Below, piece after piece: positions 53,553 through 60,451 of a DNA stretch of 64,000 bases. The notes under the pieces are model-generated. The model was not told the origin of the DNA. It did not search any database and saw nothing but the letters and a program-made list of their open reading frames with translations. This DNA comes from Candidatus Woesearchaeota archaeon (GTDB lineage: Archaea > Nanobdellota > Nanobdellia > Pacearchaeales > GW2011-AR1), in assembly GCA_964493885.1 (NCBI GenBank), contig CAZBPV010000001.1, positions 100,703 through 164,702 of the forward strand. Reading direction: 5' to 3'. The translations under genes were made by a program, and so were the position numbers. The first letter of the stretch is position 1. Every line of letters begins with the position of its first letter.

Positions 53553-53632
53553 TGCCTGCATCGCATAATGGTATTGCACATGCTTGGAAAGCATGACCCT
53601 TTGGGCCCCCAGGTTCGATTCCTGGTGCAGGC
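53553..53632 (+). tRNA. tRNA-Ser (GGA) with a long variable arm
   Basis: Hand fold: acceptor GCCTGCA/TGCAGGC with discriminator G, anticodon stem CATGC/GCATG, loop TTGGAAA, 13-nt variable arm ACCCTTTGGGCCC, and T-arm CCAGG-TTCGATT-CCTGG. Confidence 0.8.
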
Positions 53633-53694
53633 GTCACAAAATAAAAATTCAATTATATCATCAAATTTTTAAATAACAATTTCCTTATTTTATT

Positions 53695-57101: not shown

Positions 57102-58178
57102 ATGATTATTGGACTAACAGGAACTAAAGCTTCTGGAAAACAAAAAATTGCAGATTTGTTAAAGGAAAGAGGATTTTTTTATTCCTCTACATCAGATAGA
57201 GTAAGAGAAGAAGCTGAAAAAAGAAGAGGCGATGATAAATACACAACAAAAGAATTGCAAGATATTGGCAATGACTTGAGAGATAAGTATGGATTAGACA
57301 TACTTGCAAGAAGAACTCTTGAAAGGATTAGAACTGATGATTGTGCAGTTATTGATGGCATTAGAAACCTGGGAGAAATTGCATTTTTAAGAAAAAATGC
57401 TCCTGACTTTTATCTTGTTTCAGTTGATGCTCCAAGGGAAATTAGATTCCAAAGACTAAAGGGAAGAGGAAGACCAAGTGACCCTAAAACTTGGGAAGAA
57501 TTTCTTGCAATGGATGAAAGAGATTTGGGAAAAGGAGAAGAAAAATCAGGACAGCAAACTTACCAATGCATGCAAGAAGCAGATTATTTTGTGCAAAATA
57601 CTAGAACACTTGAAGATTTGCAAAATAGTTTTTCTTTTGCTCCAGATTCTTTTCTAACCCTATTTCCTGCTGATAAAAGGAGGCGTCCAAGCTTTAATGA
57701 AATGTTCATGAGGCAGGCATGGGAGTGGAGCTATCGTTCCAAATGTCTAAGAAGAAAAGTTGGAGCAGTAATAAGCACAGTCAATGATGACAAGCGTCTT
57801 AATAATATTCCTATTTCTTCAGGTTATAATGGCCCAGCAAGAGGAGCACCTCATTGCGATGAAGTTGGATGCTTGAGAACTCAACTGAATATTCCTTCAG
57901 GGCAAAGGCAGGAAATTTGCAGAGCAGTTCATGCAGAAGAAAACGCAATTTTAAATGCAGGCATGATTGGAGCAAGAGTTCTTGGAGCAAAAATGCATGC
58001 AACAGCACATCCATGCTCCTATTGTGCAAAAACAATAAGCCAGTCAGGAATAGCAAAAGTAATTTATCTGGGAGATTATCCAGACCCAATAGCTAATGGG
58101 ATATTCAAAGACGGAGAAGTAGAGGTAGTTCCTTATCAGGGTGTCTCTCCTCAAGCTTTCTCTAGAATTTGGGGTTAA
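57102..58178 (+). CDS. Fusion of a UPF0200-like nucleotide kinase (P-loop) domain and dCMP deaminase
   Basis: The N-terminus has MIIGLTGTKASGKQKIADLL...VIDGIRNLGEIAFL...RFQRLKGRGRPSDP. The C-terminus has HAEENAI and PCSYCAKTI (zinc-binding CDA motifs). Confidence 0.75.
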   Translation: MIIGLTGTKASGKQKIADLLKERGFFYSSTSDRVREEAEKRRGDDKYTTKELQDIGNDLRDKYGLDILARRTLERIRTDDCAVIDGIRNLGEIAFLRKNAPDFYLVSVDAPREIRFQRLKGRGRPSDPKTWEEFLAMDERDLGKGEEKSGQQTYQCMQEADYFVQNTRTLEDLQNSFSFAPDSFLTLFPADKRRRPSFNEMFMRQAWEWSYRSKCLRRKVGAVISTVNDDKRLNNIPISSGYNGPARGAPHCDEVGCLRTQLNIPSGQRQEICRAVHAEENAILNAGMIGARVLGAKMHATAHPCSYCAKTISQSGIAKVIYLGDYPDPIANGIFKDGEVEVVPYQGVSPQAFSRIWG

Positions 58179-58471
58179 TAAGAAGGTAAAAGTTCATTAT
58201 GCCCGAATTGAATGATTAAGTCAATCTTTTTCTCCAGCTCTTTTCCTAAAATAGGTGTATCGCAAGCACCAAAACAAGATTCCATCCATATAATAAACTC
58301 AACCTTGCCTTTAGTCTGTTCTCTTAAATAATCAACAACAGCAGTTGCATATAATTTTAATCCATCTGGAAACTGCAATAAAACAAGCTTGGCGTTGTTT
58401 TTCTTTATATTTGCAATTACTTTGTCTAATTCTAAGTCATAGAATTCATTTAATTCATTAAGTGTTTTCAT
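58175..58471 (-). CDS. dph2: Dph2 (diphthamide synthesis) N-terminal fragment only, 98 aa; truncated gene or mini-protein
   Basis: YDLELDKVIANIKKNNAKLVLLQFPDGLKLYA...CFGACD...DLIIQFGHN matches only the first third of archaeal Dph2. The stop overlaps the convergent deaminase gene. Confidence 0.6.
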   Translation of the reverse strand: MKTLNELNEFYDLELDKVIANIKKNNAKLVLLQFPDGLKLYATAVVDYLREQTKGKVEFIIWMESCFGACDTPILGKELEKKIDLIIQFGHNELLPSY

Positions 58472-58500: not shown

Positions 58501-58569
58501 TGCTTTGAACAGCCTGGCAATTATCTTTCATTTGTATTAATTTAAACATAGTAAGAAACACTTAAAAAA

Positions 58570-58668
58570 GCTGAATTCTTATGGAAATTGTCTAACTTCG
58601 GTTAGATATGCTTGACTTCGGTCAAGTATTGGAGGTTCGGACTTCGGTTTTAACCTCCTATTTTTTTA
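58570..58668 (+). ncRNA. Candidate structured small RNA: three consecutive UUCG-capped hairpins followed by an oligo-T tract
   Basis: Hairpins are TCTAAC-TTCG-GTTAGA (58591..58606), ATGCTTGAC-TTCG-GTCAAGTAT (58608..58629) and GGAGGTT..GGAC-TTCG-GTTT..AACCTCC (58631..58658), followed by TATTTTTTTA. The TATA-like TTTAAACA at 58541..58548 predicts a start near 58570. There is no ORF. Confidence 0.45.
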
Positions 58669-58711
58669 TGCCTTTAGAAATCTTTTTAACCTACTTTAAT
58701 CATTCTTAATC

Positions 58712-60451
58712 ATGGCAAATATTCGTCAACCAATAGTGACTGTCTGCGGGCACGTAGACCATGGAAAAACATCTATCCTTGATGCTATTAGGGGTAGCTG
58801 TGTCCAGGAAGCTGAAGCAGGAGGAATAACTCAAAAGATTTCCTTTACAATGTATCCTATAAACAAACTAAAAACAGCTTTCCCATTAATAGAAAAATCA
58901 GGGATTAAATTAAATATCCCAGGTTTCTTATTTATAGACACTCCCGGACATGCAGCATTTACTAATCTTAGAAAAAGAGGGGGAGCTCTTGCTGACCTAG
59001 CAGTTTTAGTTATTGATATAAATGAAGGAATCAAGCCTCAGACAGCAGAAGTAATACAGATTCTAAAATTAAATAAAACTCCTTTTGTAATTGCAATGAA
59101 TAAAATAGATAATATCTCTGGGTGGAGAACTAAAAAAGATTCGGGAATAAGAGAAAGCATTGAATCTCAGCCTCCGCATGTTAATCAAGTCTTTCAAGAA
59201 AGATACATGACACTAATAGGTTCTTTAAACAGCTACGGGTTTGATGCAGATTTATTTTATAATATAGAAGATTTCACAAAAAAAATAGCACTAGTTCCAG
59301 TATCTGCTCGTACAAAAGAAGGAATACAAGAACTAATAACAATGCTTTGTGGTTTAAGCCAGAAATATCTTGCAAATAGATTAGAATTAGGAAAAGATGC
59401 AAAAGGAGTAATGCTTGAAGTAAAGACAATTAAAACAATTCACTATAATGAAGCAATTCTTTATGACGGAGAACTCTCAAAAGAACAGGAAATTGCAATC
59501 TCAAATCTAGAAGGAGAACCAATTATAACTAAGATAAGAATTCTTGAAGAAATAGAGCCATTATGCGCTAAATTTAAGCCAAAAGAAAAAGTAAAAGCTT
59601 CAACTGGATTAAGAATGCAGTTAATTGAAAAGGCAGGAATTCTTCCAGGAATGCCTTTTGAAGTATTCAAAGGAAATCTAGATAAAATAAAAAAGAAATT
59701 CAAAAAAGAGATTTCAGAAAACATAAAAACTCAAAAGCAAGGAATAATTGCCAAGGCAGATTCACTAGGAAGCCTTGAAGCACTGCTTGTATTACTAAAA
59801 GAAAATCATGTGCCTGTTGTAAAAGCAGGAATAGGAAGCATAAATAAAATAGATTTAACTTCGGCAAAAGCAAATCTTGATATAAATGAGCTTGATGCAG
59901 TAATTATTGGATTTAATGTTAATATGGATGAAGAAGCAAAAGAAATTCAAAAAAATGTAAAAGTAATAACTAATGATGTTATCTACAAATTAATTGACGA
60001 TTTAGTTTTATACAGAAAGGAAAAATCAAAAGAAATTGAAAAAAGAAGATTAATGGAATTAGCAACTATTGGGAAAGCAGAGATTCTTCATCAGTATGTG
60101 TTTAGAAATACAAAGCCAGCAATCTTTGGAGTAAGAATTAATGCTGGAAAAATCAGGCCAGAACTTACTTTAATTGATGAAACAGGAGAAAAAGTAGGGC
60201 GATTAAAAAATATTCAGTTAGACAAAGCCTCAGTTAAAGAAGCTACAGAAGGAATGGAAGTAGCAGTATCTCTTCCAGGGGTTAATTTTGAAAGGCAAGT
60301 AAAAGATAGAAAATTCTTATTCTCTGAACTTTCTGAAAGCCAGTTCAGGACATTTAAGAAAAATAAAGATTTACTAACTCAGTCAGAAATCAAGGCTCTT
60401 CAGGAAATTGCTGACATAAAACGAAAAATCAAGCCTGAATGGGGAATTTAA
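58712..60451 (+). CDS. infB: Translation initiation factor aIF5B
   Basis: RQPIVTVCGHVDHGKTSILDAIRG, DTPGH and NKID, with aIF5B domain order. Confidence 0.9.
   Translation: MANIRQPIVTVCGHVDHGKTSILDAIRGSCVQEAEAGGITQKISFTMYPINKLKTAFPLIEKSGIKLNIPGFLFIDTPGHAAFTNLRKRGGALADLAVLVIDINEGIKPQTAEVIQILKLNKTPFVIAMNKIDNISGWRTKKDSGIRESIESQPPHVNQVFQERYMTLIGSLNSYGFDADLFYNIEDFTKKIALVPVSARTKEGIQELITMLCGLSQKYLANRLELGKDAKGVMLEVKTIKTIHYNEAILYDGELSKEQEIAISNLEGEPIITKIRILEEIEPLCAKFKPKEKVKASTGLRMQLIEKAGILPGMPFEVFKGNLDKIKKKFKKEISENIKTQKQGIIAKADSLGSLEALLVLLKENHVPVVKAGIGSINKIDLTSAKANLDINELDAVIIGFNVNMDEEAKEIQKNVKVITNDVIYKLIDDLVLYRKEKSKEIEKRRLMELATIGKAEILHQYVFRNTKPAIFGVRINAGKIRPELTLIDETGEKVGRLKNIQLDKASVKEATEGMEVAVSLPGVNFERQVKDRKFLFSELSESQFRTFKKNKDLLTQSEIKALQEIADIKRKIKPEWGI

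Follow-up and report, generated by a model that had tools for sequence, protein, structure and literature searches.

In the tiny genomes of DPANN archaea nearly all non-coding bases are under pressure. Beyond rRNA, tRNA, SRP RNA and RNase P RNA, very few non-coding RNAs of these archaea have, to our knowledge, been described. The classes of small RNA with which an archaeal hairpin element can be compared are recognized by a few features. Box C/D sRNAs carry a C box (RUGAUGA) near the 5' end and a D box (CUGA) near the 3' end, which form a k-turn. In H/ACA sRNAs the hairpin contains a large pseudouridylation pocket and is topped by a k-turn or k-loop, and an ACA box follows the stem on its 3' side. 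tRNA-like minihelices (t-elements) have an acceptor/T stem of 12 bp closed by a 7-nucleotide T-loop, together with a discriminator base and either CCA or a site for RNase Z. Among hairpin caps, C(UUCG)G is a very stable tetraloop. Archaeal transcription termination requires only oligo-T.

Here we describe an intergenic element made of UUCG-capped hairpins in the window, a 64,000-nucleotide stretch of a DPANN genome. From sequence comparison we put at roughly 0.8 the probability that a stand-alone gene at positions 58590 to ~58667 (plus strand) specifies a non-coding RNA some 75 nucleotides long, which belongs to an undescribed family restricted to one GTDB family. The most likely role of this RNA, at less than even odds, would be that of a trans-acting structural or protein-binding RNA. 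No description of such an RNA was found in the literature.

Three UUCG-capped hairpins in an intergenic gap

The 240-nucleotide gap between the divergent ORFs at 58175–58471 (minus strand) and 58712–60451 (plus strand) contains three consecutive hairpins, each capped by C(UUCG)G, and the sequence is as a preliminary description of the window had claimed it. Hairpin 1 (GUCUAAC-UUCG-GUUAGAU; 58590–58607, plus strand) is the constant core hairpin of the RNA family described below. The 6 bp proposed earlier for it (58591–58606) are present, and one outer G·U pair extends the stem to 7 bp. Hairpin 2 (AUGCUUGAC-UUCG-GUCAAGUAU; 58608–58629, plus strand) is an optional middle hairpin and has the 9 bp previously assigned to it, one of them G·U. 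Hairpin 3 (GGAGGUU-C-GGAC-UUCG-GUUU-U-AACCUCC; 58631–58658, plus strand) is the terminal long hairpin, and its composite stem of about 11 bp consists of 7 + 4 bp flanking a C/U mismatch. The 5' strand of this hairpin is purine-rich, and G·U pairs lie beside its loop. The linkers between the three hairpins are only 0–1 nucleotide long. The oligo-T reported to follow the hairpins directly is found in a U-rich tail, UAUUUUUUUA (58659–58668, plus strand), whose U7 run at 58661–58667 is the presumed archaeal terminator. The ATG at 58582, already noted for its early stop, encodes only M-E-I-V-stop.

The clustering of these loops had been judged very improbable by chance, and the counts agree. The hexamer CTTCGG occurs four times in the window, with three of these occurrences inside 52 nucleotides at the element. 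On both strands of the whole genome (0.70 Mb, 31% G+C) it occurs 41 times, and the element is the sole cluster. UUCG hairpins with a stem of at least 5 bp number only 12 genome-wide. When the predicted 77-nucleotide transcript 58590–58666 was folded, it reached -31.2 kcal/mol (z = -6.75), and the structure of minimum free energy (MFE) makes up 52% of the ensemble. A longer stretch of 108 nucleotides (58565–58672) folds at -32.8 kcal/mol on the plus strand (z = -4.0), compared with -22.2 kcal/mol on the minus strand. A BLAST search found no second copy in the same genome, and a repeat or MITE is thereby ruled out.

Comparison with annotated RNA classes

A scan of the window with Rfam at the gathering threshold reported only a tRNA-Ser at 53554–53633. 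Neither the gathering threshold nor a permissive one gave a family match at the element itself, where the best Rfam 15 hit, snoR31 on the minus strand, scores 18.7 bits and would need 44 (E = 1.8). The corresponding positions of 26 other member loci were likewise without an Rfam match, so that the earlier reading of the element as belonging to no known RNA family extends beyond this copy.

Neither ARAGORN nor the Rfam tRNA model detected a tRNA at the element. A reduced 5S, SRP or RNase P RNA can be dismissed, since each of the three was located at another place in the genome, and in relatives too: 5S rRNA (RF00001) lies at C3:76623–76738, archaeal SRP RNA (RF01857) at C6:39693–39953 and archaeal RNase P RNA (RF00373) at C13:4524–4793, where C numbers denote contigs. 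That the element is not a tRNA, SRP RNA or RNase P RNA had been stated from the letters of the window, and these searches reach the same answer. As a separate observation, the SRP RNA of this genome (~261 nucleotides) scores 86.9 bits, within a range of 55–89 in the genus, against the Rfam gathering cut-off of 96.5, so standard annotation would miss it.

The absence of box C/D and H/ACA signatures, also proposed for the window copy, holds across the family. The C box is absent from all 66 members compared. There is no pseudouridylation pocket: stems are continuous or interrupted by 1x1 to 3x3 internal loops only, with no GA/AG tandem. The tail begins with U or AC(U/C) and never contains a conserved ACA.

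Homologues and their distribution

BLASTN searches against relatives revealed the same arrangement with different stem sequences, both in the genus and in another genus. A covariance model (R1) was built from a seven-member alignment with 26 consensus pairs. With this model, exactly one copy was found in 9 of the 10 genomes of the genus sample, which are 64–88% complete. In the GTDB family, sampled by 151 genomes at about one per genus, 38 genomes gave matches; copies are thus present in about a quarter of its genera. The order sample of 301 genomes yielded 77 positive genomes, all from the same GTDB family. The phylum sample (401 genomes, 281 genera) yielded five matches, again all from this family, and one weak match (L116), which is a false positive and not a UUCG-hairpin array.

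Presence varies even inside genera (for instance g101, g37 and g166). Laxer filters left 33 of 35 high-quality, previously negative genomes of the family negative, and this absence indicates that the role of the RNA is dispensable. The weak matches L117 and L118 score 19–22 bits. An exact-pattern scan of one genome per species, for 185,579 species in all, picked up 40 loci. DPANN metagenome-assembled genomes labelled Pacearchaeota, Woesearchaeota, Nanoarchaeota or simply "archaeon" account for 37, and the other three (two in Marinobacter, one in Myxococcales) are taken as chance matches. Viral contigs scanned with the family signature gave no match. The covariance-model searches of the order and phylum samples found nothing convincing outside the GTDB family.

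As judged from these genome scans, the RNA family does not extend beyond a single GTDB family of DPANN archaea labelled Pacearchaeota or Woesearchaeota. It is real, lineage-restricted and patchy, near-universal in the genus and dispensable across the GTDB family. Lack of conservation in relatives had been named as grounds for abandoning the element as an RNA; homologues were instead found in many genera of the GTDB family.

Covariation and strand specificity

Among the seven close relatives, 10 of the 26 pairs show compensatory changes, and in hairpin 2 the proportion is 6 of 9 pairs. For a wider comparison, 68 non-redundant members were anchored on two loops, taking hairpin 1 with ±9 nucleotides and the last hairpin with ±13 nucleotides, so that the alignment is ungapped and not fitted to the model. 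It was used instead of a MAFFT core alignment, which was set aside because the 3' strand of the last hairpin was out of register. An alignment fitted to model R1 was left out of the pair counts because it misplaced the two-hairpin members.

In the loop-anchored alignment, 91.2% of the 1360 cells are standard pairs, compared with 75.4% in shuffles (none of 500 reaches the observed value). Controls in which the 3' partner was slid by 1–3 columns are 33–56% paired. Changes on both sides occur at 18 of the 20 stem pairs and involve 267 cells, so covariation in relatives, another point on which the RNA reading had been made to depend, is found. The seven pairs of hairpin 1 are 98.1% paired and six of them change on both sides, as do 12 of the 13 pairs of the last hairpin. 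The members were gathered with a UUCG-containing model or pattern, and the invariance of the loop is therefore partly circular; loop variants (UUUA, UUCU, CUCG and UUAG) do occur.

G·U pairs make up 220 of the 1360 cells (16%), and pairing of the opposite strand would drop to 76.8%. The G·U pairs, the promoter orientation and the U-run together place the RNA on the plus strand and exclude a purely DNA-level palindrome. The element thus shows the conserved secondary structure, backed by covariation on one strand, that is expected of a stand-alone archaeal sRNA gene.

Promoter geometry and predicted transcript ends

The spacing of promoter elements was taken from the genome itself. TATA-like hexamers counted upstream of its 404 long ORFs form a sharp maximum at -29 and -28 from the A of the ATG, with 84 and 71 occurrences where the background is ~6. 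From this peak, most genes of the genome appear to be leaderless, with a TATA box that starts 29 nucleotides before the first transcribed base. In the leaderless genes A is also enriched just upstream of the TATA box, most strongly at -33/-32.

For the RNA family, the region upstream of hairpin 1 lies outside the search model. An ungapped profile of 71 members, with the first paired base of hairpin 1 as position 0, has A in 92–96% of members at BRE positions -34 to -32. A TATA element with the consensus YTTAWAAA follows at -29 to -22, where T reaches 94% at -27 and A 96% at -24. In the start region, T is found in 80% of members at -1 and a purine in 97% at position 0. This geometry is identical to that of the leaderless protein genes, and it provides the element with its own BRE/TATA at the canonical distance, as expected of a stand-alone archaeal sRNA gene.

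In the window, the family profile and the leaderless genes locate a BRE-like AAA at 58556–58558 (plus strand) within GTAAGAAAC, and the family profile together with the TATA geometry of the genome identifies CTTAAAAA at 58561–58568 (plus strand) as the TATA box of the RNA gene. When the leaderless-gene geometry is applied to this TATA box, the start is predicted at G58590, where the pairing of hairpin 1 begins. From promoter geometry and fold, the predicted transcript would run from G58590 into the U7 run (58590–58667, plus strand) and be about 75 nucleotides long (72–78), and we infer that its 3' end lies within U7, at 58661–58667. The preliminary description was right to give the element its own TATA box and oligo-T terminator, since a promoter is found in fixed register and U7 follows hairpin 3, but it misplaced the TATA box. 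The sequence chosen, TTTAAACA at 58541–58548, is present but is not the conserved element, which lies ~20 nucleotides downstream. The start proposed near 58570 is off by the same ~20 nucleotides, the promoter geometry giving ~58590 instead. The same leaderless promoter-to-start geometry also offers a means of predicting where RNAs have their 5' ends in these genomes.

Modular architecture of the RNA family

The number of hairpins differs among the members. Among 66 non-redundant members whose TATA motif is in place, two hairpins are found in 36, three in 24, four in four and six in two. Hairpin 2 is missing from all 36 two-hairpin members. The constant core consists of the first and the last hairpin, and the middle hairpins are optional modules. 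The description of the element as a three-hairpin RNA is therefore correct for the form in the window and does not hold as the general form, since members span from two to more than six hairpins. Tandem gene copies also exist in the RNA family.

Larger assemblies were observed at individual loci. At L066 (G280:C29, ~36.0–36.3 kb), a promoter-driven array of ~300 nucleotides contains ~12 mostly UUCG-capped hairpins. At L110 (CAYQDG010000015.1), a seven-hairpin array lies beside a three-hairpin copy. Neither array has an Rfam match. At L035 (G098:C1:26520–26710), there is a tandem amplification of a unit consisting of a short hairpin, a long hairpin and ACUUAUAUUC, and the same YUAUAUUC motif is also found before the first hairpin; this tail motif could be a terminator or a binding site.

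The first hairpin has the consensus GUCURAC-UUCG-GUYAGAC, and its two loop-adjacent pairs are near-invariant (A-U in 67 and C-G in 65 of 68 members). The last hairpin is 10–17 levels long, usually 12–13. Its 5' strand is purine-rich, with GGAAGG or GGGAGG in the family and GGAGG in the window copy. Its 3' strand after the loop is an invariant GUUUU, so that the loop-adjacent pairs toggle between A-U and G·U, and the fourth pair from the loop is G·U in 46 of 68 members. In all members the last hairpin is followed by U-rich sequence, which often reads (AC)YUUAUAUUC or UUAUUUUC. Linkers across the members are 0–3 nucleotides long, short enough for the helices to stack end to end.

Many members (for example L024, L039 and L041) have a run of U5–U6 inside the last hairpin, directly after its loop (UUCGGUUUUUU). 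This internal run could serve as an earlier archaeal termination site, which would leave the purine-rich 5' strand unpaired. In the window copy, the run after the loop of the last hairpin is only U4.

Genomic neighbours and alternative explanations

The element lies 44 nucleotides upstream of the ATG of aIF5B, on the same strand, and might therefore be a cis-acting 5' leader or attenuator of that gene, at which transcription stops in U7 or reads into aIF5B. A hairpin followed by a U-run looks attenuator-like, and the order RNA then aIF5B recurs in several genera (G000, G004, G008, G009, G087, G098 and G351). However, aIF5B has a BRE/TATA of its own, AGAAA-TC-TTTTTAA at 58676–58690 (plus strand), which lies outside the RNA and downstream of the U-run. 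Its TATA box starts 29 nucleotides before the ATG at 58712, in keeping with the leaderless spacing seen across the genome. Seven further relatives have the motif AGAAA/CAAAA-NN-TTTTTAAY equally far from the ATG of aIF5B. In one of them, G004, it is still in place, even though the RNA is 233 nucleotides upstream of aIF5B. The conservation of this BRE/TATA downstream of the U-run indicates that aIF5B is transcribed from its own promoter and that the element is not its 5' UTR. By the same sequence evidence, aIF5B is probably leaderless.

Surveyed loci lead in the same direction. A cis-acting leader would always be upstream of aIF5B with no promoter between, yet aIF5B is the downstream gene at only 6 of 35 loci. 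At the 34 of these 35 loci where a downstream gene was found, it is co-oriented at 21 and opposed at 13, and most members are not near aIF5B. Nor is any alternative (anti-terminator) pairing visible in an RNA whose MFE structure takes up 52% of the ensemble. We therefore consider a leader very unlikely and infer that the RNA gene is independent of aIF5B. Besides aIF5B, the recurrent neighbours at the 35 loci are a divergent 98-residue Dph2 piece upstream (six loci) and a PC4-like protein (three loci), and the remaining neighbours are unrelated genes. The order of Dph2 piece, RNA and aIF5B looks like inherited synteny that has been broken in many lineages. At a single locus, L032 (G157:C1:31328–31405), the RNA gene lies between ftsY, which encodes the SRP receptor, and srp54.

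The divergent ORF at 58175–58471 (minus strand, 98 residues) had been noted as a dph2 fragment. Residues 4–88 of the full-length Dph2 (328 residues) of two relatives match it, and residues 85–296 of the same proteins match C3:11974–12555 of its own genome. Since Dph2 matches two separate loci, the 98-residue ORF is probably the N-terminal part of a split Dph2. An ORF of ~100 residues corresponding to this piece (48–77% identity) is found in ~94 of the 151 family genomes, and ~18 have a full-length Dph2. The piece is present in 28 of 38 RNA-positive genomes compared with ~66 of 113 RNA-negative ones. A mini-Dph2 as the partner of the RNA was rejected, as the co-occurrence is not tight and the protein looks like one half of an enzyme that has been split.

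A second alternative is that the last hairpin mimics the acceptor/T-arm minihelix of tRNA, in the manner of a t-element, and is a substrate or decoy for RNase Z or the CCA-adding enzyme. Its stem, mostly 12–13 levels, is near the 12 bp of such a minihelix, and in 13 of 48 members A-C follows the last stem. Against this, stem length spans 10–17, a tetraloop takes the place of the 7-nucleotide T-loop, and U directly follows the stem in 27 of the 48 members, with no conserved discriminator-CCA; in the window copy the stem is followed by UAUUUU. The 5' end would coincide with the transcription start, so an RNase P step would be unnecessary. Together with the negative ARAGORN and Rfam tRNA results at the element, these differences make tRNA mimicry highly improbable.

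The hairpins might also be a mere terminator or insulator without an RNA product of their own, and the preliminary description had considered that they could act only as a bidirectional terminator. The last hairpin with its U-run does resemble an intrinsic terminator, and at 19 of 35 loci the element comes shortly after the end of a co-oriented gene. In the window, however, both flanking genes point away from the element, which leaves nothing for the hairpins to terminate. A terminator would also leave the BRE/TATA in fixed register before hairpin 1 across the RNA family and the conserved hairpin-1 sequence unaccounted for. A bidirectional terminator should fold on both strands, whereas the G·U pairs make the fold strand-specific, and termination in archaea needs oligo-T alone. 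The chance that the element is only a terminator is remote.

The weakest alternative, a DNA-level function as palindromic binding sites (operator or origin repeats) or as a mobile repeat, can be practically discounted: every hairpin is an inverted repeat in the DNA and the element lies between two divergent promoters, but the 16% of stem cells that are G·U are mismatches in duplex palindromes and on the other strand, the half-sites covary freely rather than staying conserved, and the element is unique in the genome, has no terminal repeats and was not found in the viral contigs scanned.

Discussion

Homologues with compensatory changes and a promoter in fixed register support the reading of the element as an independent intergenic RNA gene, which the preliminary description had put forward. 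For such a gene, the conserved geometry suggests that archaeal RNA polymerase would initiate from the BRE/TATA at 58556–58568, start transcription at G58590, the first paired base of hairpin 1, and end it in the U7 run after hairpin 3. The resulting RNA would be almost wholly helical, and its three abutting hairpins could stack into a rod.

How such an RNA would work can be suggested largely by analogy. It may be a stable structural RNA whose helices bind or titrate a protein in trans, and we tentatively regard a stable structural or protein-binding role of this kind, comparable to that of sponge RNAs with several hairpins, as the most likely one, at somewhat less than even odds. Candidate recognition features would be the conserved hairpin-1 sequence, the A-C(UUCG)G-U tips, and the conserved G·U pairs of the last hairpin with its invariant GUUUU strand. 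Antisense targeting is unlikely, as the RNA is nearly all helix and has no single-stranded guide segment. The patchy distribution and the variable number of copies and modules argue for an accessory rather than a core housekeeping role.

A more specific and rather doubtful proposal is that the family is an archaeal counterpart of the bacterial sponge RNAs, in which a promoter-driven and very stable array of two to more than ten near-identical UUCG-capped helices would titrate an RNA- or dsRNA-binding protein of DPANN symbionts. UUCG loops are normally inert caps and not protein-recognition sites, and in the large array at L066 the pairs below the loop vary; both points weaken the idea that identical tips are the binding sites. 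If the sponge proposal were true, the number of modules and of gene copies would set the titration capacity, and a distribution this patchy, with copy number varying, would suggest an accessory role that is either regulatory or related to conflict, for example against a virus or in dealings with the host.

For annotators, the RNA family supplies a model with which a gene left unannotated in many Pacearchaeota-type genomes can be recognized. Its promoter is clean, its 5' end is predicted precisely, its covariation is strong, and its modules expand from two to more than ten hairpins. The RNA is short and easily synthesized, and it could be used as bait for its partner.

Compared with known systems, the element shares features with several RNAs of different origin. 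Like 5S rRNA, SRP RNA and RNase P RNA, it is a structured, GC-enriched RNA gene in an AT-rich genome and has UUCG-capped helices, and it differs from them in having neither a closing helix nor a junction. The archaeal C/D and H/ACA guide sRNAs are likewise small non-coding RNAs of similar size with their own promoters, whereas the element lacks the C box, pocket, k-turn and ACA box and has almost no single-stranded guide segments. With the archaeal t-elements and tRNA-like minihelices it has in common a stable stem of ~12 bp, A-C in some members and a U-rich trailer; it is set apart by its tetraloop, a stem of 10–17, the lack of a conserved discriminator-CCA and a 5' end predicted at the transcription start. 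The bacterial sponge sRNAs CsrB, RsmZ and RsmY differ in that their loops are GGA motifs bound by CsrA/RsmA, with no such motif known in the element, whose host is archaeal and which has no sequence or Rfam similarity to them. In their organization they nevertheless provide a working analogy, and only that: each is a stand-alone small RNA gene that consists almost only of hairpins with one loop motif, the number of hairpins varies among relatives, and the gene ends in a hairpin and a U-run.
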